The notes under the pieces are model-generated. The model saw nothing but the letters and a program-made list of their open reading frames with translations, had not been told where the DNA came from and searched no databases. Position numbers and translations under genes: made by a program. A stretch of DNA of 64,000 bases, taken from NCBI RefSeq assembly GCF_024700885.2, contig NZ_CP117016.1, one strand, 5' to 3'. The stretch's first letter is position 1; each line of letters begins with the position of its first letter. This stretch comes from Escherichia coli. Its GTDB lineage: Bacteria > Pseudomonadota > Gammaproteobacteria > Enterobacterales > Enterobacteriaceae. Shown here piece by piece: positions 9,092 through 49,660 of the stretch.

Positions 9092-10096
9092 ATGGGCGAT
9101 AGTATTCTTTCTCAAGCTGAAATTGATGCGCTGTTGAATGGCGACAGCGAAGTCAAAGACGAACCGACAGCCAGTGTTAGCGGCGAAAGTGACATTCGTC
9201 CGTACGATCCGAATACCCAACGACGGGTTGTGCGCGAACGTTTGCAGGCGCTGGAAATCATTAATGAGCGCTTTGCCCGCCATTTTCGTATGGGGCTGTT
9301 CAACCTGTTGCGTCGTAGCCCGGATATAACCGTCGGGGCCATCCGCATTCAGCCGTACCATGAATTTGCCCGCAACCTGCCGGTGCCGACCAACCTGAAC
9401 CTTATCCATCTGAAACCGCTGCGCGGCACAGGGCTGGTGGTGTTCTCACCGAGTCTTGTGTTTATCGCCGTGGATAACCTGTTTGGCGGCGATGGACGCT
9501 TCCCGACCAAAGTGGAAGGTCGCGAGTTTACCCATACAGAACAGCGCGTCATCAACCGCATGTTAAAGCTGGCGCTTGAAGGCTATAGCGACGCCTGGAA
9601 GGCGATTAATCCGCTGGAAGTTGAGTACGTGCGTTCGGAAATGCAGGTGAAATTTACCAATATCACCACCTCGCCGAACGACATCGTGGTTAACACGCCG
9701 TTCCATGTGGAGATTGGCAACCTGACCGGCGAATTTAATATCTGCCTGCCATTCAGCATGATCGAGCCGCTACGGGAATTGTTGGTTAACCCGCCGCTGG
9801 AAAACTCGCGTAATGAAGATCAGAACTGGCGCGATAACCTGGTGCGCCAGGTGCAGCATTCACAGTTGGAGCTGGTCGCCAACTTTGCCGATATCTCGCT
9901 ACGCCTGTCGCAGATTTTAAAACTGAAACCCGGCGACGTCCTGCCGATAGAAAAACCCGATCGCATCATCGCCCATGTTGACGGCGTCCCGGTGCTGACC
10001 AGTCAGTACGGCACACTCAACGGTCAATATGCGTTACGGATAGAACATTTGATTAACCCGATTTTAAATTCTCTGAACGAGGAACAGCCCAAATGA
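9092..10096 (+). CDS. fliM: Flagellar motor switch protein FliM
   Basis: Track ORF 8894..10096; start moved to MGDSILSQAEIDALL, giving 334 aa. Confidence 0.92.
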   Translation: MGDSILSQAEIDALLNGDSEVKDEPTASVSGESDIRPYDPNTQRRVVRERLQALEIINERFARHFRMGLFNLLRRSPDITVGAIRIQPYHEFARNLPVPTNLNLIHLKPLRGTGLVVFSPSLVFIAVDNLFGGDGRFPTKVEGREFTHTEQRVINRMLKLALEGYSDAWKAINPLEVEYVRSEMQVKFTNITTSPNDIVVNTPFHVEIGNLTGEFNICLPFSMIEPLRELLVNPPLENSRNEDQNWRDNLVRQVQHSQLELVANFADISLRLSQILKLKPGDVLPIEKPDRIIAHVDGVPVLTSQYGTLNGQYALRIEHLINPILNSLNEEQPK

Positions 10097-10506
10097 GTGA
10101 CATGAATAATCCGGCCGATGACAACAACGGCGCAATGGACGATCTGTGGGCTGAAGCGTTGAGCGAACAAAAATCAACCAGCGGCAAAAGCGCTGCCGAC
10201 GCGGTGTTCCAGCAATTTGGCGGTGGTGATGTCAGCGGAACGTTGCAGGATATCGACCTGATTATGGATATTCCGGTCAAGCTGACCGTCGAGCTGGGCC
10301 GTACGCGGATGACCATCAAAGAGCTGTTGCGTCTGACGCAAGGGTCAGTCGTGGCGCTGGACGGTCTGGCGGGCGAACCGCTGGATATTCTGATCAACGG
10401 TTATTTAATCGCCCAGGGCGAAGTGGTGGTCGTTGCCGATAAATATGGCGTGCGGATCACCGATATCATTACCCCGTCCGAGCGGATGCGCCGCCTGAGC
10501 CGTTAG
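10093..10506 (+). CDS. fliN: Flagellar motor switch protein FliN
   Basis: 137-aa ORF overlapping the fliM stop. Confidence 0.95.
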   Translation: MSDMNNPADDNNGAMDDLWAEALSEQKSTSGKSAADAVFQQFGGGDVSGTLQDIDLIMDIPVKLTVELGRTRMTIKELLRLTQGSVVALDGLAGEPLDILINGYLIAQGEVVVVADKYGVRITDIITPSERMRRLSR

Positions 10507-10508
10507 TG

Positions 10509-10874
10509 ATGAATAACCACGCTACTGTGCAATCTTCCGCGCCGGTTTCTGCTGCGCCACTGCTGCAGGTGAGCGGCGCACTCATCGCCATTATTGCCCT
10601 GATCCTCGCTGCTGCCTGGCTGGTAAAACGGCTGGGATTTGCCCCGAAACGCACTGGCGTTAACGGTCTGAAAATTAGCGCCAGTGCTTCGCTGGGCGCG
10701 CGTGAACGGGTCGTGGTGGTCGATGTGGAAGATGCACGGCTGGTGCTCGGCGTTACCGCAGGGCAAATCAATCTGCTGCATAAACTTCCCCCTTCAGCAC
10801 CAACGGAAGAGATACCGCAGACCGATTTTCAGTCGGTCATGAAAAACTTGCTTAAGCGTAGCGGGAGATCCTGA
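10509..10874 (+). CDS. fliO: Flagellar export apparatus protein FliO
   Basis: Track ORF starts at GTG 10506; ATG at 10509 gives MNNHATVQ (121 aa). Confidence 0.88.
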
Positions 10875-27036: not shown

Positions 27037-27707
27037 TATTTTTTTACCGCTACGAATGAATAGCCCATCCCCCGGATTGTGGCGATTAGCTTTTCAGGAA
27101 AAGGATCATCAACTTTTGCGCGGAGCCTGCGAATGGCGACGTCCACCGTATTGGTATCACTATCAAAGTTGATTCCCCAAATTTCACTCGCAATAACCGT
27201 TCTGGGGATAATCTCGCCAGCTCTGGAGGCCAGTAGCCAAAGTAACTGAAACTCCTTGCGCGTCAGTGTAATACTGATATTGTCCCTGCTCACACTTTGA
27301 CTAACAGAGTCCATTCTTAAGCCACTGATTTCTAATGTTGAATTCAAAGCGTGATGTTGCCTTAATTGTGCCCGAACCCTTGCCAGCAACTCAGAAAATG
27401 AAAAAGGTTTTACCAGATAATCATTTGCCCCACTGTCCAGCCCTCTGACTCTGTCATCGACAGAATCTCTTGCAGTAAGGCAAATAACAGGAGTTTGCTT
27501 TGCCGTTCTTAACGTTTGTAAGATCTGCCAGCCATCCATACCCGGAAGCATAATATCCAGAATGATCAATGCATAATCATCCTTAAGCGCAAGATAAAGC
27601 CCATCTCTGCCATCAGAAACGGCATCAATGACATAACCCGCTTCGGAAAGCCCCTGCGTTACCCACTCCTGGGTCCTTTGATTATCTTCAATAAGTAAAA
27701 TCTTCAT
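27036..27707 (-). CDS. hprR: OmpR-family response regulator HprR (YedW)
   Basis: Track ORF 27036..27818; start moved to MKILLIEDN (223 aa). Confidence 0.9.
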   Translation of the reverse strand: MKILLIEDNQRTQEWVTQGLSEAGYVIDAVSDGRDGLYLALKDDYALIILDIMLPGMDGWQILQTLRTAKQTPVICLTARDSVDDRVRGLDSGANDYLVKPFSFSELLARVRAQLRQHHALNSTLEISGLRMDSVSQSVSRDNISITLTRKEFQLLWLLASRAGEIIPRTVIASEIWGINFDSDTNTVDVAIRRLRAKVDDPFPEKLIATIRGMGYSFVAVKK

Positions 27708-30053: not shown

Positions 30054-30580
30054 TGAACTGCACCCCAAATGTTGGACATAATCTGACATCTGAAGGTGCA
30101 GTTTATGAAACATTCATTTGAAGTAAAACTTGCCGCTGTAAATCATTACCTGGCTGGTCATGCAGGCATCATTTCTACGGCAAAACTCTTTCAACTTTCT
30201 CACACCAGCCTCTCACACTGGATTAATCTTTTTCTTCTTCACGGTCCTCGGGCACTGGATTGCAGACACAAGCGTAGCTATTCTCCTGAAGATAAACTTT
30301 GCGTGGTTCTTTATGCTCTCGGGCATTCTGAGTCTCTACCCCGGGTAGCTGCCCGGTTTAATATTCCCAGCCACAACACGGTTAAAAACTGGATAAAAGG
30401 CTACCGCAAATCTGGTAATGAGGCCTTTATCAGGCGCAGGAAGGAGAAAAGCATGACCCGTTCTGATGATACCCATGAAAACGAGGCAAACATGACGCCG
30501 GAAGAGATGAAGAATGAGCTGCGTTATCTTCGCGCAGAAAATGCATATCTGAAAGCCATGCAGGAGCATCTCCTGGAAAA

Positions 30581-31485
<905 letters not shown>

Positions 31486-35070: not shown

Positions 35071-35199
35071 CTATTCGATAATGGGTACTGTTGGCCATTC
35101 AATATCCGGTGCAGTTGTTGTATTAACACGGTTCAGCAACACCCGATACTTCTTCCAGGCTTCCAGCAACGAGGTTTCTTCCTCCGTTGCATATACAGC
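35071..35199 (-). pseudogene. 3' remnant of a lambda-type tail-fibre assembly gene (tfa)
   Basis: Encodes [42 protein letters not shown], matching the recalled C-terminus of lambda Tfa; no Tfa-like N-terminus upstream in frame. Confidence 0.6.
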
Positions 35200-35545: not shown

Positions 35546-36586
35546 TTATTTAGACGCAAGCGCCGCATCAATTGCAGATAATCTTTGTCTTAATTCTGCG
35601 TTTTCTTCTTCCAGTGCTGTTATTCTGTCGTCTGACTCTCTGGCTACCTGAACAAGCAAGCCAGTAACACCAGAATAATCTACTGTGTAATAACGTTCAC
35701 CTTCTTCACCTTCCGATCCGCTCGCACCGTCCTGATATTTCATTACGGAACCTACAACTTCTGGGATTGCTTCCAGAGCTTCCTGTGCAATGACACCAGC
35801 ATAGGGCATACCGTTTTCTTTAAGCGTGTATGTATAGCCGTTCATTTTACGGATGCGGTCGGTTGCATTATCGATCACCTGAATGTTGTCTTTCAGATCC
35901 CGGTCGGAATGCTGGTTAAATGCGGTGGCATGACATGCACCATTAACGCTTAACATATAGGTGTTATCGGTATTTTTCTGCGCATAGAACATATAAGCGC
36001 CACCATCAACACCGACTTCATAAACAACAGGACGGCTGGAGTTGCCCCACAATTGAGCAGTAACACCAGCATAAGCGGTTCCCTGTGTGTTTAATGTCAT
36101 GGTTGACCCATGATTGGCATATTTGATCTGTAATGTGTCGGTGTAATCAAATTTAATAAGCGCGTTACTTCCACGCTTGCTGTATGACATAAGGCAGTTA
36201 CCCATTTTGAGGTATCCGCTGTCACCGGGAAAAATCATCGTACCGCCATAAAGGTTGGTAAAGTCCCAGCAAATGTTTGTCCCGTTATCGTTCAGGTTAA
36301 GGCGCGCCATTGCGTTACCTGGACTGTCTATCCATTTTTTGAGGTATAGTTCGCAATACGCATCCTCAACACCTGCCGTCCTGTGAGTTGAGCGGAGTTT
36401 TCTCCCAAATATAGCTCCGCTAGTTGGCAATACCTGCTGATACCATGAAGCAGACCAGTCACCAACGATTTCATCTTTGCTGTCTACATATAATTTTGTT
36501 GCGTAGCTTCCTTGATCGTTTTTTAATTTGCTAACGTCGGATTTTAGCGTTTTGATGTCATCAGGAATTACTGTCGATGTAGCCAT
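35546..36586 (-). CDS. Tail-fibre / tailspike protein with C-terminal intramolecular-chaperone (S74-like) domain
   Basis: 346-aa ORF; C-terminal region with YTYTLKENG...GVIAQE...YSGVTGLLV and a coiled-coil tail resembles self-cleaving chaperone domains of phage fibres. Confidence 0.65.
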   Translation of the reverse strand: MATSTVIPDDIKTLKSDVSKLKNDQGSYATKLYVDSKDEIVGDWSASWYQQVLPTSGAIFGRKLRSTHRTAGVEDAYCELYLKKWIDSPGNAMARLNLNDNGTNICWDFTNLYGGTMIFPGDSGYLKMGNCLMSYSKRGSNALIKFDYTDTLQIKYANHGSTMTLNTQGTAYAGVTAQLWGNSSRPVVYEVGVDGGAYMFYAQKNTDNTYMLSVNGACHATAFNQHSDRDLKDNIQVIDNATDRIRKMNGYTYTLKENGMPYAGVIAQEALEAIPEVVGSVMKYQDGASGSEGEEGERYYTVDYSGVTGLLVQVARESDDRITALEEENAELRQRLSAIDAALASK

Positions 36587-36595
36587 TTTTCTTCC

Positions 36596-36877
36596 TCACA
36601 TCCAGCCACGAAGTTGATGCTCAACAGCAACCACGTATTCATCGAATAATGACGATATTTGCGAATCATTAATGATGCGCACGTTTACAAAATATCCGTC
36701 TTCCTTAACACATACCGGTTCGCCATCTTCAGTCAGTTCTCCGGTTTCTTTGTACACGTTACCTATCACGTCAATAAGAATATCATCCTGCATCGACTCG
36801 TCATCATAATAGCCAGTACTCTCCATAAAGGCCGAAAAGTCGGCCCTGTCGGCAAATTTGAGTGTTAAATCTTTCAT
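36596..36877 (-). CDS. Hypothetical acidic protein in the tail-fibre cassette
   Basis: 93-aa track ORF tightly coupled to neighbours; no family recognised. Confidence 0.45.
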   Translation of the reverse strand: MKDLTLKFADRADFSAFMESTGYYDDESMQDDILIDVIGNVYKETGELTEDGEPVCVKEDGYFVNVRIINDSQISSLFDEYVVAVEHQLRGWM

Positions 36878-39249
36878 TAGATTGACTCCCCCACCTGAGC
36901 ATCAGTCAATGCCTTGTGCCATATTCTGAAATTCCTGACATGACCAAATAAATGACGTAACCCGGCTGTAGTCTGGCCTCCAATACGGATAATTGCGGTG
37001 TTCTGAATACAGGACCATGTGGTTTTTGTTTCGCTGGATATATGCCCGTTACTTACTGAGCACGTAGACTGCTCTGACTTTACACGCATCCCCATAACCA
37101 TTTTTTCAAGCGATGCGTTTTCGTTTACCCGTCTGTTAGCTCCTCCAATATCGCAATAAGGAAATCCGTCGTAATCTGTTGAACGACCGAAGCCAAGAAT
37201 AATAGCCGCTCCGGTTTGATGACCGCCGGTATCAAAAACACGTGGCGCTGCATTTGGCGTTTTATACCAGTTCTTATGTACCTCACAAAGAACCGTAAAA
37301 GGAAGATTATAAAGATTATTCTTAATTGGAACTGTAACTATATCGCTTGCGCGGGTCGCCGCCGTCGCTCCTGATATAATAAAAGATGATACACAAGGCC
37401 CATCTTCTACTTGTGGGGTGGCCAGATAAATATAGTCACCAGATACGGTTGCCCCGCTCTGCTTAGGAGAATACTGTATCTGAGAGCCTATTTTAAACTC
37501 CCCATCAATTGCCTGAATTGTTGCCTCTGCAAAAATCCATCCGGTAGCTTCGTCCTTTCTGACTCTCGCTGTAATTCTTGAGGCAGCACCGCCTGTCATA
37601 TTAATTTCAAGCGTTTGTGTATCAATATACGCATCACCAAGAAAAGTTGTTGCGCTACCGTCATATTTATCAAACCGGATACGCAACCTTACCTGCAGTT
37701 CTGTTTTAAAACGACATGAGGTTGTCACGTGTTTATTATCGCCTGAGACATCAACTGACTTTGTTGCAGCAATTGATGCCATATTAATGGCTGAGGTTTG
37801 CCCAATCAGAGAATCGTTGCAGACAAACTTTCCATAGGTAAAACCAAAATTATCCGTCCCTGTTTCGGGCACATCCATATTTGACGATCGCCCCCAACTG
37901 GCAGGGCTTTCCGAATTGAGCATGTAGTTTGTTCTTTGCCCCTCAATAAGCAGGCCATCACGTTCAAATCGTGGCTCGTCAATGGCAGCCTCTGTCAGCA
38001 CACCAGATTTGTTAATATAGGTTGCTTTCGATGCACGTTTAAACTTAACAATCTTGTCGCCAGGCATCGTTATTTCATCGTCACCAATAACAATTTTTTT
38101 ATATGACGGCGAAAAGCCCGTAATCATATCCAGTGAATCGTTAAACGGTATCCACACATCAGGCAGTGGCTGTAAGACATATTTATACGGCTCTGCTGCC
38201 TGACTTGCATACTCTCTGGCTGCGTCTTCACTTGCTTTAGCTGCTGTCTGGCTTGCTGCCGATGCTTTCGCCGAGTTCGCCGCTGCAGTCTCGCTTGTCT
38301 TTGCATTGGTTTCACTGGTTTTTGCCGCTTTTTGACTGTTGGCTGATGCAGTGGCAGAAGCAGCCGCCGCGCTTGCAGAACCAGCTGCCGCGCTCTCGCT
38401 TTGGGCTGCTGCAACCTGGCTGTTTTTCGCCGCAGTTTCGCTGGCTTTGGCATTCGTTTCGCTGGTCTTCGCTGCCGTCTGGCTGGACTTTGCGTTAGTT
38501 TCACTCGTCTTCGCTGCTTTCTGGCTGTTAGCCGCAGCAGTTGCTGCTCCAGCTGCTGAAGTCGCAGAACCGGCTGCTGCGCTCTCGCTCTCAGCTGCTG
38601 CAGTCTGGCTGTTTTTCGCCGCAGTTTCACTGGCTTTGGCATTCGTTTCGCTGGCCTTCGCTGCCGTCTGGCTGGACTTTGCGTTGGTTTCGCTCGTCTT
38701 TGCTGCTGTCTCGCTATTTTTCGCGTTGGTTTCTGATTTTTTAGCTGCTGTCGCGGAATTTGCCGATGCAGTCTGCGAGGCCGCTGCCGCCTGTGCGCTG
38801 TTAGCTGCATTCGTTTCTGAGTTTTTCGCCGCGTTCTTCGATGATGCCGCTGCAGTTTCGGATTTCTTTGCCGCCGCTGCGCTCTGAGAGGCGGCTTCAG
38901 CGTTGCGTGCCGCTTCTTCCACCATTACCTCAAAACGACGCAATGCCTCCGGCATGACATCCTCTTCCGTCATGGCACCGAGAAAATCATTCAGCGTGCC
39001 TGGTCTGGAACCTTCATAGACGGTAATGGTCCCGGCATGTGAAGGCGGAAAACCTTCAACCAGCAGGGTGACGCTGTACTGGCCATACTCAACATCCATG
39101 CTGTAACGCCCGGCTTCATCCGGATTTTCAGAGGCCACCGTATTCACCAGTACCGTGGTGCTGTTACGCTTTGCTTTGAGCTGAATAGTGCAGTTCTGTA
39201 TTGGTTTTCCTGCACCGTCTTTCAGCACGCCTGAAATCTGTACTGCCAT
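36877..39249 (-). CDS. stf: Side tail fibre protein, lambda Stf-like N-terminus with Ala/Ser/Thr-rich repeat shaft
   Basis: N-terminus MAVQISGVLKDGAGKPIQNCTIQLKA resembles lambda Stf; track ORF starts two codons earlier at 39255. Confidence 0.8.
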   Translation of the reverse strand: MAVQISGVLKDGAGKPIQNCTIQLKAKRNSTTVLVNTVASENPDEAGRYSMDVEYGQYSVTLLVEGFPPSHAGTITVYEGSRPGTLNDFLGAMTEEDVMPEALRRFEVMVEEAARNAEAASQSAAAAKKSETAAASSKNAAKNSETNAANSAQAAAASQTASANSATAAKKSETNAKNSETAAKTSETNAKSSQTAAKASETNAKASETAAKNSQTAAAESESAAAGSATSAAGAATAAANSQKAAKTSETNAKSSQTAAKTSETNAKASETAAKNSQVAAAQSESAAAGSASAAAASATASANSQKAAKTSETNAKTSETAAANSAKASAASQTAAKASEDAAREYASQAAEPYKYVLQPLPDVWIPFNDSLDMITGFSPSYKKIVIGDDEITMPGDKIVKFKRASKATYINKSGVLTEAAIDEPRFERDGLLIEGQRTNYMLNSESPASWGRSSNMDVPETGTDNFGFTYGKFVCNDSLIGQTSAINMASIAATKSVDVSGDNKHVTTSCRFKTELQVRLRIRFDKYDGSATTFLGDAYIDTQTLEINMTGGAASRITARVRKDEATGWIFAEATIQAIDGEFKIGSQIQYSPKQSGATVSGDYIYLATPQVEDGPCVSSFIISGATAATRASDIVTVPIKNNLYNLPFTVLCEVHKNWYKTPNAAPRVFDTGGHQTGAAIILGFGRSTDYDGFPYCDIGGANRRVNENASLEKMVMGMRVKSEQSTCSVSNGHISSETKTTWSCIQNTAIIRIGGQTTAGLRHLFGHVRNFRIWHKALTDAQVGESI
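38340..38720. repeat. In-frame tandem duplication (about 189-bp unit, 2 copies) inside stf
   Basis: Near-identical DNA blocks about 38341-38530 and 38530-38720 encoding repeated KTSETNAKSSQTAAK-type shaft repeats. Confidence 0.7.
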
Positions 39250-39307
39250 ATTCACTCCACAAATAAAAAAGGCGCCATTTCTGGCGCCCGTATTTGGGTT
39301 ATAAAAC

Positions 39308-44783: not shown

Positions 44784-45112
44784 CAGTTCACCACCTGTTC
44801 AAACTCTGCGCTGAACTCAACACGCAACATACTGACCCGCGACGACCATTTTGCGCAGGTCACCTTTATCTGCCGGTAGCCATAAGGCGGCGTCCACAGA
44901 AAGGCCTTCCAGCCCCCGTGCTCAGCCAGAAACGACTCCAGCGCCGCGGCCTCCCAACGGGGAACAGAAAGCGTCACGCTGTACGTTTTCAGGTTGGCAT
45001 TCAGCCCGGCAGGCGCTCGCTGGGAATAGCCATCACCAAAGCGCACCTTTCTTACAGAAGGGGCCGAAGCCACATCCATACCGGGTTTCACTTTCCAGCG
45101 GAAGGTTTTCAT
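44783..45112 (-). CDS. M: Minor tail protein M
   Basis: 109-aa ORF in lambda order. Confidence 0.92.
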   Translation of the reverse strand: MKTFRWKVKPGMDVASAPSVRKVRFGDGYSQRAPAGLNANLKTYSVTLSVPRWEAAALESFLAEHGGWKAFLWTPPYGYRQIKVTCAKWSSRVSMLRVEFSAEFEQVVN

Positions 45113-47670
45113 CGTCCACCTCCGGAGAACAGGCCACCATCACGCATCTGTGTCTGAATTTCATCACGGGCACCCTTGCGGGCCATGTCATACACTGCCT
45201 TCATCATCTGTGGACCTGGCAGACCATTCGTACCGTCGTTCTGAATCACCACGTGATTGTTCTGATTAAAATTAATGCCTTCAGCCCGCCGCATCTGCGC
45301 CGGACTTCCGGCACCGCCCACATAACCACCTTCCGCATAGCCGCGCATCAGCCGGTACAGGTTGCCGACACCAATCCGGCTGGTTGCCTCCTTCGTGAAG
45401 ACAAATTCACCACGGTGAACAATCCCCGCTGGCTCATATTTGCCGCCGGTTCCCGTAAATCCTCCGGTTGCAAAATGGAATTTCGCCGCAGCGGCCTGAA
45501 TGGCTGTACCGCCTGACGCGGATGCGCCGCCACCAACAGCCCCGCCAATGGCGCTGCCGATACTCCCGACAATCCCCACCATTGCCTGCTTAAGCAGAAT
45601 TTCTGTCATCATGGACAGCACGGAACGGGTGAAGCTGCGCCAGTTCTGCTCACTGCCGGTCAGCATCGCTGCCATATTCTGTGCAATACCATCAAAGGTC
45701 TGCGTGGCTGCACTTTTTACCTGCGACATACTGTCCGTGGCGCTCTCTTCCCACTCACTCCAGCCGGACTTCAGGCCTGCCATCCAGCTCCCGCGAAGCT
45801 GGTCTTCAGCCGCCCAGGTCTTTTTCTGCTCTGACATGACGTTATTCAGCGCCAGCGGATTATCGCCATACTGTTCCTTCAGGCGCTGTTCCGTGGCTTC
45901 CCGTTCTGCCTGCCGGTCAGTCAGCCCCCGGCTTTTCGCATCAATGGCGGCCCGTTTTGCCCGTTGCTGCTGTGCGAATTTATCCGCCTGCTGCGCCAGC
46001 GCGTTCAGGCGCTCCTGATACGTAACCTTGTCGCCAAGTGCAGCCAGCTGGCGTTTGTACTCCAGCGTCTCATCTTTATGCGCCAGCAGGGATTTCTCCT
46101 GTGCAGACAGCTGGCGACGTTGCGCCGCCTCCTCCAGTACCGCGAACTGACTCTCCGCCTTCCACAAATCCCGGCGCTGCTGGCTGATTTTCTCATTTGC
46201 TCCGGCATGCTTCTCCAGCGTCCGGAGTTCTGCCTGAAGCGTCAGCAGGGCAGCATGAGCACTGTCTTCCTGACGATCGCCCGCAGACACCTTCACGCCG
46301 GACTGTTTCGGCTTTTTCAGCGTCGCTTCATAATCCTTTTTCGCCGCCGCCATCAGCGTGTTGTAATCCGCCTGCAGGATTTTCCCGTCTTTCAGTGCCT
46401 TGTTCAGTTCTTCCTGACGGGCGGTATATTTCTCCAGCGGCGTCTGCAGCCGTTCGTAAGCCTTCTGCGCCTCTTCGGTATATTTCAGCCGTGACGCTTC
46501 GGTATCGCTCTGCTGCTGCGCATTTTTGTCCTGTTGAGTCTGCTGCTCAGCCTTCTTTCGGGCGGCTTCAAGCGCAAGACGGGCCTTTTCACGATCATCC
46601 CAGTAACGCGCCCGCGCTTCATCGTTAACAAAATAATCATCCTTGCGCAGATTCCAGATGTCGTCTGCTTTCTTAAACGCAGCCTCTGCCTTAATCAGCA
46701 TCTCCTGCGCGGTATCAGGACGACCAATATCCAGCACCGCATCCCACATGGATTTGAATGCCCGCGCAGTCCTGTCTGCCCAGGTCTCCAGCGTGCCCAT
46801 GTTCTCTTTCAGGCGGCGGGTCTGGTCATCAAACCCTTTCGTTGCGGCCTCGTTCGCCGCCTGCAATGCCCCGGCTTCATCGCCGGAACGCTGCAACTGA
46901 GCAACATACGCAATCTGCTCCGCCGTCACGTTATGGAACTGGCGCGCCATCGCCGTCAGCCCCGACGTCGGGTCAGTGGTCAGCTTCCCGAAGGCTTCAG
47001 CGACCTTGTCCACCTCCACACCGGATGCAGAGGAGAAACGCGCCACACTCTGGCTGATGGACGCAATCTGAGCCTCACCGCTTACCCCCGCCTTAACCAG
47101 TGCACTGAGTGACTCGCTGGTCTGGTTAAACGTCAGCCCTGCCGCCTGCCCGGCTCTGGACAGGACCAGCATACGATCTGCCGTCAGACCCGACTGATTA
47201 CCGGAAAGGACCAGCGTTTTGTTGAAATCGGACAGGGTTGAGTTACCCTGATACCAGGCATACGCCAGCGCACCGGTCGCCACCGCCAGCGAGGTGGCCC
47301 CGACCATCGGCAGGGTGATCGCACCGGCAAGCCCCCGGAACATGGGGATCATCCCGCCGAAGGAGTCCTTAACCTGACCACCCTGTTGCAGCAGGATCAG
47401 CCACGGGCTTTGCCCGCCTGCAAGCTGCGTGGCCACGTCGGTGAACTGTGCAGGCAGCATACGCATGGCGGCTTTATACTGTCCGACGGAAATCCCCGCT
47501 TTCTGTGCAGCCAGCGCCTGTCGGCTCAGCGACTGTTCAACGACTGCCGCTGTTTTTTTCGCATCACTTTCCGTACCGGAAAAATGACGCCTGACTCTGG
47601 CCATCTGCTCGTCAAATCTGGCCGCATCCAGACTTAAATCAACGACCAGATCGCCTACCGGTTCAGCCAT
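45109..47670 (-). CDS. H: Tail tape-measure protein H
   Basis: 853-aa ORF, lambda H length, coiled-coil rich. Confidence 0.95.
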   Translation of the reverse strand: MAEPVGDLVVDLSLDAARFDEQMARVRRHFSGTESDAKKTAAVVEQSLSRQALAAQKAGISVGQYKAAMRMLPAQFTDVATQLAGGQSPWLILLQQGGQVKDSFGGMIPMFRGLAGAITLPMVGATSLAVATGALAYAWYQGNSTLSDFNKTLVLSGNQSGLTADRMLVLSRAGQAAGLTFNQTSESLSALVKAGVSGEAQIASISQSVARFSSASGVEVDKVAEAFGKLTTDPTSGLTAMARQFHNVTAEQIAYVAQLQRSGDEAGALQAANEAATKGFDDQTRRLKENMGTLETWADRTARAFKSMWDAVLDIGRPDTAQEMLIKAEAAFKKADDIWNLRKDDYFVNDEARARYWDDREKARLALEAARKKAEQQTQQDKNAQQQSDTEASRLKYTEEAQKAYERLQTPLEKYTARQEELNKALKDGKILQADYNTLMAAAKKDYEATLKKPKQSGVKVSAGDRQEDSAHAALLTLQAELRTLEKHAGANEKISQQRRDLWKAESQFAVLEEAAQRRQLSAQEKSLLAHKDETLEYKRQLAALGDKVTYQERLNALAQQADKFAQQQRAKRAAIDAKSRGLTDRQAEREATEQRLKEQYGDNPLALNNVMSEQKKTWAAEDQLRGSWMAGLKSGWSEWEESATDSMSQVKSAATQTFDGIAQNMAAMLTGSEQNWRSFTRSVLSMMTEILLKQAMVGIVGSIGSAIGGAVGGGASASGGTAIQAAAAKFHFATGGFTGTGGKYEPAGIVHRGEFVFTKEATSRIGVGNLYRLMRGYAEGGYVGGAGSPAQMRRAEGINFNQNNHVVIQNDGTNGLPGPQMMKAVYDMARKGARDEIQTQMRDGGLFSGGGR

Positions 47671-48097
47671 ACCGGACTCCTCCTGCGATCCCTTCTGATA
47701 CTGTCATCAGCATTACGTCATCCTCCGTCATGCCCGCCATATCCGGGGAAGCGGGGATAACTTCATTTCCGTCCGGGTCAAAGCGGACGCCTCCGGCAAG
47801 CCCTGCCGCTTTCTGCATCAGCACATCATCTTCAGGCTCTTCGTCATCCTCACGCCGGTTCAGCAGACTGAAATCCAGCGGATGCATATCCGGATCGCTG
47901 AAAAACAGGCTGAGCACAGTGTACGTCAGCCCGGAAAAGTGCATATCCAGCAGAACATCATGAAAATAATGGGTACTGTAAAAGCGGTGCCAGTCGGCAT
48001 ACTCCGTGGATGACATCCCGGCAAGCATGGCGCGCCAGTCGGGTCGCCCCATCTCACGCGCCAGTTTCAGGGCAAAACTCAGCTCACCGTCGAACAC
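47663..48097 (-). CDS. T: Tail assembly chaperone T frame (expressed as G-T fusion by -1 frameshift)
   Basis: 144-codon open frame beginning at the slip site near the end of G. Confidence 0.85.
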   Translation of the reverse strand: MFDGELSFALKLAREMGRPDWRAMLAGMSSTEYADWHRFYSTHYFHDVLLDMHFSGLTYTVLSLFFSDPDMHPLDFSLLNRREDDEEPEDDVLMQKAAGLAGGVRFDPDGNEVIPASPDMAGMTEDDVMLMTVSEGIAGGVRYG

Positions 48098-48501
48098 TTT
48101 CCCGCAGAAACAGGCTCTGCAGGCCCGGCGTCCTCTGCCTGTTCAGGGGCATTATTCACCACAAACTCAGACATACCGGACAGCCGGTACACCACGTTTT
48201 CAGCATGAGAAATTGCCTCTGTGGGCCAGGTGGTAAGCACTTCCTGCTCAATCTGTTTAACGGCCTCATTCATGGACGGCATCTGCGTCTTCTTCGGATG
48301 GTTATGCCACAGGGACATCGCCACCAGAAACGCGCCGGTTCTGATGACGTCTTCCACAGTAACCTGACGGTTGCTGTCGGATCCCGCCTGTTCTGCCTGC
48401 CGTTTCATCAGGGCAAGATGCTCAATACGCTGCAGGGCTGACAGTTCAGAAAGCGTGACGGTCACGCCGTTATATTCAAATGATTCGGTTTTCAGGAACA
48501 T
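48079..48501 (-). CDS. G: Tail assembly chaperone G
   Basis: 140-aa ORF ending AGKCSTVS. Confidence 0.92.
   Translation of the reverse strand: MFLKTESFEYNGVTVTLSELSALQRIEHLALMKRQAEQAGSDSNRQVTVEDVIRTGAFLVAMSLWHNHPKKTQMPSMNEAVKQIEQEVLTTWPTEAISHAENVVYRLSGMSEFVVNNAPEQAEDAGPAEPVSAGKCSTVS
48097..48103 (-). other. Programmed -1 ribosomal frameshift site G GGA AAG (G to G-T)
   Basis: Heptamer lies in the G zero frame; the T frame opens exactly at this position. Confidence 0.8.
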
Positions 48502-48516
48502 CGCTGACTCTCCGGA

Positions 48517-49257
48517 TTAACTGGCGGTGACGTTGATTTCTGCAACCGCAGCAAACTCACCATTACCGGATACGACCGGAATGTTGACCTTGCCTGCAGC
48601 AACGCCGTTCACGGTGATGGTCATACCACTGACCGACACGGTGGCTTTTGTTTTATCCGCAGACACCGCACGAAAGCTCTTGTCGGTTACGCCCTCCGGC
48701 TGGAAGGCCACGGTCAGCGTGGTGCTCTGCCCTTTCACCACCGAGGTGCTGGCAGGCGTCACGGTCATGCCGGTTGCCGCTGTTACCGTGCTGCGATCTT
48801 CTGCCATCGACGGACGTCCCACATTGGTGACTTTCACCGTACGGGTGATCACTTCCTTCGCCATCACCGCCTTACCGATACTGCTGACCCAGCCACGGAA
48901 CACATCGACCGTGCCGTTCGGGAAGCGGATTTTATAGGCACGGGTATCGCCTTCATTAAACCACGCCAGCAGCGCCTGCTGCCCCTGCTCTCCGGGCATC
49001 CACGCCAGCGTGAAGCTGGTATCTCCGGCAGATTTCTGCCCCTGCCCGGTCGCAGTCCAGTCCGCATCTTCATCATCGAGATAGCTGTCGTCATAGGACT
49101 CAGCGGTCAGTTCGCCGGGTGTCAGGTCTTTAACTTTTGCCAGACGCGACCAGTCAACGTCTGAAAGCGGGTTCGCATAAGGGTCACCGTTCCCCTTATA
49201 AACCCACAGTGTGGTCCCGGCCCCTTTCACCGGTGCCAGAGGATTTGGTGTTGGCAT
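48517..49257 (-). CDS. V: Major tail tube protein V (with C-terminal Ig-like domain)
   Basis: Track ORF 48517..49287; start moved to [14 protein letters not shown] (246 aa). Confidence 0.9.
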
Positions 49258-49264
49258 ATCGTCC

Positions 49265-49660
49265 TCACATTTCATAGGTAATGACATAAGTCAGATCGGC
49301 TGAACTCCACAGGCCCGCATCATCGTCGCGCCGGTAGTCATAGCCACTGGCCACCATACTGGTGATCAAATCTGACAGTGCCGGGATATCGCTCATCACC
49401 GGATAAATCCGGGACTCCATCCACGCATCCAGCTCTGAATCCGGCACCTGAGCAGGCAGGAAAACTTCGATATGCAGCTCCGCCTGCCAGGTATCGCTGT
49501 CCAGCTCTTCGCCCGTGTATTCAGCGCCGGTGAGATAAACGGCAACTGCCGGAAAATCCGCCTCATCAAAAACAGCGGGGCGACCATCAAAAAGCGTCGC
49601 CCCGGTGTCATGCTTCTCCAGTGCATCCAGTACGGCTGCACGGAGTTCAGTATGTTTCAT
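49265..49660 (-). CDS. U: Tail terminator protein U
   Basis: 131-aa ORF in lambda order. Confidence 0.92.

Follow-up and report, generated by a model that had tools for sequence, protein, structure and literature searches.

A lambda-type G/GT programmed -1 frameshift site in the tail module of a Lambdavirus-like Escherichia coli prophage

Background

In bacteriophage lambda, the tail assembly protein gpGT is produced by a -1 ribosomal shift on the heptamer GGGAAAG, at which about 96% of the ribosomes remain in frame (PMC3296357). The gpG:gpGT ratio of ~30:1 is crucial for lambda tail assembly. The binding partner of the G parts of the two proteins is the tape measure protein and that of the T part is the tail tube protein; neither gpG nor gpGT is found in the virion (PMC5009743). 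Conservation of the G-T frameshift is widespread, and in E. coli the heptamer G_GGA_AAG counts among the highly shift-prone ones (PMC5009743, PMC7618472). Thiolation of U34 of tRNA-Lys restrains the shift (PMC3296357, PMC7618472) and tunes the ratio of the two lambda products (PMC3296357). The experimental demonstration of the lambda mechanism is summarised in three sources (PMC5009743, PMC3296357, PMC7618472), and the primary work on the G/GT frameshift (Levin, Hendrix & Casjens 1993; Xu, Hendrix & Duda 2004, 2013, 2014) is referred to here as cited in the first of these, PMC5009743.

Here we describe a G-T locus of this kind in a 64,000-nucleotide stretch of E. coli DNA (hereafter the window), and compare it with that of lambda, with those of other lambdoid phages and with the IS3-family and dnaX recoding sites. 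The coordinates of the features are collected in Table 1.

Slip site and reading frames

The minus strand of the window carries GGGAAAG at 48103->48097, at offset 398 within gene G, where the zero frame reads TCT GCG GGA AAG TGT TCG ACG GTG AGC TGA. The heptamer stands in the X XXY YYZ phase (G GGA AAG), inside the G/T overlap near the 3' end of G, and the TGA that ends G (48081..48079) lies five codons past it. The -1 (T) frame is free of stops from 48142 to a TGA at 47665..47663. A -1 slip on the heptamer predicts a G-T fusion of 279 aa, join(48501..48097, 48097..47663) on the minus strand, whose junction would read ...PVSAGK-VFDGELSFALKLAREMGRPDW....

The first-pass annotation of this DNA had reported the heptamer in the G frame, giving no strand, and had located it exactly where the T frame opens. 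It is indeed present in phase, but on the minus strand. The word "exactly" is loose, since the T frame is already open 39 nt (13 codons) before the heptamer, which lies inside the overlap. A stop codon in the T frame immediately after the slip site, named there as the observation that would speak against the site, is not found, and the frame stays open for 144 codons after the slip.

Table 1. Features of the G-T region and of its two flanking genes in the window.
Feature	Position	Strand	Basis
Tail tube protein V (major), upstream of G	48517..49287	-	PF16461 + Big_2; 97.6% identity to lambda V
Gene G, tail assembly chaperone gpG, zero-frame product, 140 aa	48079..48501	-	ORF, TIGR01674, PF06894, lambda G identity
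G/T overlap, 64 nt, both frames open, includes G stop TGA 48079-48081	48079..48142	-	Translation
Slippery heptamer G GGA AAG, proposed -1 slip site	48097..48103	-	Sequence, lambda offset, conserved position
T segment, -1 frame, 144 codons + stop, read only after slip	47663..48097	-	TIGR01715, PF06223, PHROG 32165
GC-rich inverted repeat UGGCGCG...CGCGCCA, 33 nt downstream of heptamer	48028..48063	-	Not supported as functional
Tape measure protein H, 853 aa, downstream of T	45109..47670	-	PF06791 + PF09718; full-length 97.2% identity to lambda H

Protein families and neighbouring genes

Both halves of the predicted fusion belong to lambda tail families. Residues 1–125 match the Pfam family PF06894 (lambda tail assembly chaperone G, E = 3e-58) and residues 164–239 match PF06223 (minor tail protein T, E = 6e-14). 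The NCBIfam equivalogs TIGR01674 (phage_lambda_G) and TIGR01715 (phage_lam_T) are matched at 212 bits (cutoff 74) and 186 bits (cutoff 77), respectively, and PHROG 32165 spans residues 1-278 of the fusion. A sequence search of the PDB with the G-T fusion protein found no solved relative.

The two genes sit between those of the tail tube and tape measure proteins, and the order V, G, T, H, with all genes on the minus strand, is the same as in lambda. When read from the start equivalent to that of lambda, V is 246 aa long (48520-49257). At the other end, the ATG start of H overlaps the stop of T (ATGGCTGA).

Relation to the lambda G/GT locus

The whole G-T region (839/839 bp) is colinear with positions 9711–10549 of lambda NC_001416, at 96.8% identity, with 27 substitutions and no indels. 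The lambda heptamer, at 10109-10115, lies at an offset identical to that in the window. One base differs from lambda across the 80 nt around the slip site, and within the 60 nt around it the sole difference is one synonymous base. The amino-acid changes with respect to lambda number 8 in G and 4 in T, corresponding to identities of 94.3% (full length) and 97.2%.

In addition to the heptamer G GGA AAG and its offset, the two loci have in common a G product of 140 aa, the five-codon distance to the G stop, the 64-nt overlap, the 279-aa length of the fusion and the order V-G-T-H. They differ in setting, the window element being a resident prophage copy at the tRNA-Ser/mtfA site of an E. coli chromosome and not a laboratory phage. 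From this comparison we conclude with high confidence that the element is an orthologue, effectively an allele, of the lambda G/GT programmed -1 frameshift, carried by a Lambdavirus-like E. coli prophage. A G/GT frameshift of this kind is already known and the copy in the window is an ordinary one; homologues of the G-T region are present in 3,709 of 5,426 complete E. coli genomes.

Conservation of the slip site in relatives

A scan of IMG/VR with the GT alignment yielded 556 stretches that encode a relative. The best 80 of these 556 loci were analysed, and 74 of those best 80 include the 3' end of G. An in-phase heptamer is found five codons before the G stop in 73 of the 74 loci (GGGAAAG in 71 and AAAAAAG in 2), and in each of them the T-homologous -1 frame runs for 149–159 codons. 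The exception (L013, IMGVR_UViG_2695420576_000005, locus about 1860-1900) offers no usable G-T arrangement. Upstream of its retained GGGAAAG it has an insertion of 4 nt with substitutions close by, as a result of which G meets a premature TGA and the bodies of G and T share one frame. We considered this locus as an alternative architecture and rejected it as such; it probably reflects decay of the prophage copy or an error of assembly.

Each of the 10 reference phages, whose GT proteins range from 96% to ~46% identity, likewise has an in-phase heptamer aligned with that of the window, amid diverging flanking sequences and with an open -1 frame. The overlap of G and T in relatives measures 25-85 nt. 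Three heptamer variants, all ending in AAAG, occur among the relatives: G GGA AAG in lambda, PhiR12_4 and an Stx2a phage; A AAA AAG in Stx1_9793 and CP-1639; and G GAA AAG in HK225, phi80, mEp043, Klebsiella Kp4865-4 and LLS. In the records of phi80 and LLS the same site is labelled as the -1 slippery sequence, and G-T is entered as a joined CDS. The phi80, LLS, HK225, mEp043 and N15-like phages (G GAA AAG) and the Stx1 / CP-1639 phages (A AAA AAG) share with the window element the homologous G/T domains and the aligned slip position, and their heptamers, like that of the window, end in an A AAG decoded by tRNA-Lys. They differ from it in the first codon of the heptamer, their G bodies are ~46-56% identical in protein and their T C-termini are shorter.

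Conservation of the T-frame protein starts at the slip (K-[VA]-[FL]-x-x-E-L-x-F-...-LARE-[MF]-GRPDWRAMLAGM). This pattern shows coding constraint on the T frame from the slip onward, and supports the overlapping T ORF being a real coding sequence, as the first-pass annotation had claimed and as the matches to TIGR01715, PF06223 and PHROG 32165 also indicate. Its assignment of the site to the lambda-type G to G-T class is likewise borne out, by the colinearity and shared offset with lambda, by the protein families and by the conservation in 73/74 viral loci and 10/10 reference phages.

Chance expectation and window-wide scan

The heptamer itself is not enriched, with 7 copies of GGGAAAG in the window against 7.74 +/- 2.81 expected. 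Enrichment was thus dropped as evidence for the G-T site, the frequency being at chance (7 vs 7.7). We also scanned both strands of the window for sites with the geometry of a programmed frameshift, which we defined by three features: an upstream zero-frame ORF 80 codons long or longer, a stop in the zero frame no more than 40 codons away, and a -1 extension that reaches 80 codons or more. This geometry is passed by 5 of the 570 XXXYYYZ sites. Within the XXXAAAG class, which is the one shifty in E. coli, 2 of 45 sites pass, namely the G-T site and a site at 30578 in an IS3-family transposase.

The latter belongs to a copy of IS1397 (IS3-family, 30096-31453 (+)) and consists of an in-phase A AAA AAG at 30578-30584, at the orfA/orfB junction, with a 164-codon orfA upstream of the heptamer and a 289-codon -1 frame downstream. 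RefSeq marks an identical IS1397 copy as a transposase with "programmed frameshift", which makes it an internal positive control for the scan. The scan of the XXXAAAG class recovers one known programmed frameshift and the G-T site, and no others of that class. What is rare is the setting of the G-T heptamer, not the heptamer itself.

The three other XXXYYYZ sites that pass the geometry (10063 TTTAAAT, 27039 AAAAAAA and 34967 AAAAAAC) all fall outside the XXXAAAG class. They appear to lie where long ORFs end beside a long -1-frame ORF and probably represent ordinary junctions or shadow frames.

State of the prophage

Over positions 27663–64000 the window matches the E. coli MLI114 chromosome (NZ_CP117013) at 100% identity, and the G-T region lies there at 2169214-2170052. 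The nu1→J module matches Lambdavirus phages as a single colinear piece at ~96% identity, and each of the 20 lambda proteins Nu1 through J has a counterpart of full length that is free of internal stops, with 83–100% amino-acid identity. In MLI114 the prophage is found at a tRNA-Ser gene beside mtfA. Its tyrosine integrase is annotated as frameshifted (NZ_CP117013 2140193-2141360) and a few genes of the early region are annotated as pseudogenes. The integrase lies outside the window, and its bearing on the present element holds if the window comes from the MLI114 genome or a close relative.

The first-pass annotation had taken the slip site as support for a functional tail module. A functional structural module would agree with the intact slip site and with the stop-free, full-length genes from nu1 to J, which is an argument from consistency and not a demonstration. 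Because of the frameshifted integrase of the identical genome, excision and induction of the prophage may be impaired, and an induced lysate may yield no phage.

These observations bear on an alternative according to which the site is a sequence relic, that is, the prophage is cryptic, its late operon is silent and the frameshift, although encoded, has no function in the present host. The frameshifted integrase and the several early-region pseudogenes of the identical genome favour such a reading, as do the truncation of the tail fibre assembly gene and the absence of lom. Against it stand the 20 structural orthologues from nu1 to J, and the differences from lambda in G and T, which fall mostly at the third codon position of the frame in use (15/27) and so fit continued or very recent purifying selection. 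We regard a relic as unlikely, while giving it appreciable weight. It concerns the activity of the element and not its identity, and is compatible with our main explanation, an orthologue of the lambda G/GT frameshift.

Some other features of the prophage were observed. The side tail fibre region (35074-35190 (-), 35546-39255 (-), 38281-38718) is unlike that of lambda. Its stf-like gene is only 56% identical to the lambda one over the N-terminal 291 aa, the fibre gene contains an internal direct repeat of 249 bp (83% identity), and the tail fibre assembly gene is down to its last ~39 codons. Two tRNA genes, at 63617-63693 (-) and 63800-63875 (-), are present in the late-regulatory region, downstream of the antiterminator gene. 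They code for a tRNA-Arg(tct) and a tRNA with a CAT anticodon, called Met by ARAGORN and Ile (lysidine type) by PGAP, and the pair resembles the tRNA clusters of Stx-type lambdoid phages. In MLI114, a yersiniabactin island lies directly beyond the prophage, at tRNA-Asn.

Proposed mechanism and stimulatory elements

Because of the near-identity at the slip site, a mechanism the same as that of lambda is the best explanation, and it is from the lambda experiments that the slip in the window element, its rate and the chaperone roles described below would follow by analogy. Most ribosomes translating G would stay in frame up to the TGA and release the 140-aa gpG. A minority would slip back by one base on G GGA AAG, at a rate that is ~4% in lambda, with the Gly and Lys tRNAs re-pairing with GGG and AAA. 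The single E. coli tRNA-Lys (anticodon mnm5s2UUU) reads both AAA and AAG, which makes A AAG very shift-prone. After the slip, reading would continue as GTG TTC GAC GGT GAG CTG... and yield gpGT, of 279 aa. If the parts act as they do in lambda, the common G part would bind H, the tape measure protein, and the T part would recruit V, the tail tube protein. A fixed rate of slipping would set the ~30:1 ratio of gpG to gpGT needed for tail assembly, both proteins being presumably absent from the virion.

In the dnaX and IS3 systems, stimulation typically comes from a Shine-Dalgarno-like element upstream of the heptamer, from a hairpin or pseudoknot downstream of it, or from both. Elements of both kinds were searched for at the G-T site. 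In the 30 nt upstream (GACGCCGGGCCTGCAGAGCCTGTTTCTGC), neither GGAGG nor AGGAG was found, and an SD-like stimulator is not conserved in the relatives. Folding of the 124 nt from the heptamer as a single sequence gives a marginal z of -1.7, with 9 of 200 shuffles as good. Near the classical spacing (5-9 nt after the heptamer) there is only a 5-bp helix rich in G-U pairs. A consensus fold of 15 relatives (alifold) has a covariation term of -0.8 kcal/mol. Finally, an Rfam scan of 47400-48700 returned only the archaeal sR30, at 19 bits against a gathering score of 38, off-site and at chance level.

The GC-rich inverted repeat at 48063-48028 was considered as a stimulator and rejected, since it is too far from the heptamer for a classical spacer and its covariation is no better than that of shuffles. 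In this helix 11 of 14 pairs are invariant, and 131-162 of 500 shuffles equal the observed covariation. Entropy at synonymous sites is lower in the stem than outside it, a difference that is not significant (Mann-Whitney p = 0.07). The helix overlies the invariant peptide LAREMGRPDWRAM, the most conserved of T. It is nearly invariant in 15 relatives that vary at many other synonymous sites; two variable stem positions mostly retain pairing, and synonymous positions of the loop vary. That this helix might tune the gpG:gpGT ratio from a distance seems to us very doubtful. A possible route would be that the leading ribosome is paused on it and a trailing one is queued with the heptamer in its decoding sites (collision-assisted slippage). 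If true, the remote helix would be a hidden modulator of a lambda G-T site deemed 'unstimulated'.

No conserved stimulatory RNA structure is supported at the G-T site, and this fits a shift of low efficiency (~4%) that relies on the heptamer alone. The site shares with IS3-family orfA-orfB and E. coli dnaX the X XXA AAG -1 slip, the reading of this heptamer by the E. coli tRNA-Lys and the making of a fusion at a set ratio (PMC5009743). It differs from these dnaX / IS3-type sites in being without supported stimulators, and the proteins are unrelated.

Origin of the T product

An independent origin of T would make the heptamer incidental. In such a scheme, T is a gene of its own, initiated at the GTG at 48097-48095. 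Mechanical ORF calling begins T at this codon, and so do the public annotations, including the RefSeq record of lambda and PGAP. In both lambda NC_001416 and the PGAP/RefSeq annotation of MLI114, G and T are two separate CDSs with no slippage join, and the T start used is this GTG, which falls within the slip site. The IS3 frameshift of the same region is one that PGAP does annotate, and only some phage records (phi80, LLS) give a joined G-T. In the lambda literature, however, the T sequence is made only as part of gpGT (PMC5009743, PMC3296357). The codon after the slip is moreover a non-start codon in 30 of 73 relatives on viral contigs (GTC 23, GCG 3, GCA 2, GCC 1, GTA 1) and in 6 of the 11 sequences of the reference set, being GCA or GCC in Stx1, CP-1639, phi80, mEp043, Kp4865-4 and LLS, and protein conservation in the T frame begins exactly at that codon even where it is a non-start. 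There is no Shine-Dalgarno sequence at a usable distance from the GTG, the sole purine run being the GGGA of the heptamer, 2 nt away, and the next in-frame ATG of T falls within the invariant motif LAREMGRPDW. Independent initiation of T is unsupported because of the frequent non-start codon, the missing Shine-Dalgarno and the conservation from the slip onward, and we hold it to be highly improbable. The separate CDSs reflect annotation practice rather than evidence.

A G-T fusion arising from transcriptional slippage of RNA polymerase on the A/G run, and not from the ribosome, has a probability close to negligible: such slippage is known for longer homopolymer runs (reviewed in PMC5009743) and some relatives do have a six-A run (AAAAAAG), but the run in the window (GGG + AAA) is far below the lengths that support efficient slippage, and what is conserved is the in-phase pattern of tRNA re-pairing (X XXY YYZ, or G GAA AAG with its final A AAG) and not the length of the run. 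In lambda, the gpG:gpGT ratio responds to host tRNA-Lys modification (PMC3296357), and the ribosome is therefore implicated.

Conclusions

As recoding events go, the G/GT frameshift is a textbook example, and the copy in the window is nearly identical to that of lambda, so that little new is added to what is known of it. The intact slip site and the intact nu1..J genes are a reasonable marker of an undecayed structural module in this prophage, not of its inducibility. The practical value of the site is in annotation, where the real second product of the locus is the GT fusion of 279 aa, encoded on the minus strand by join(48501..48097, 48097..47663).
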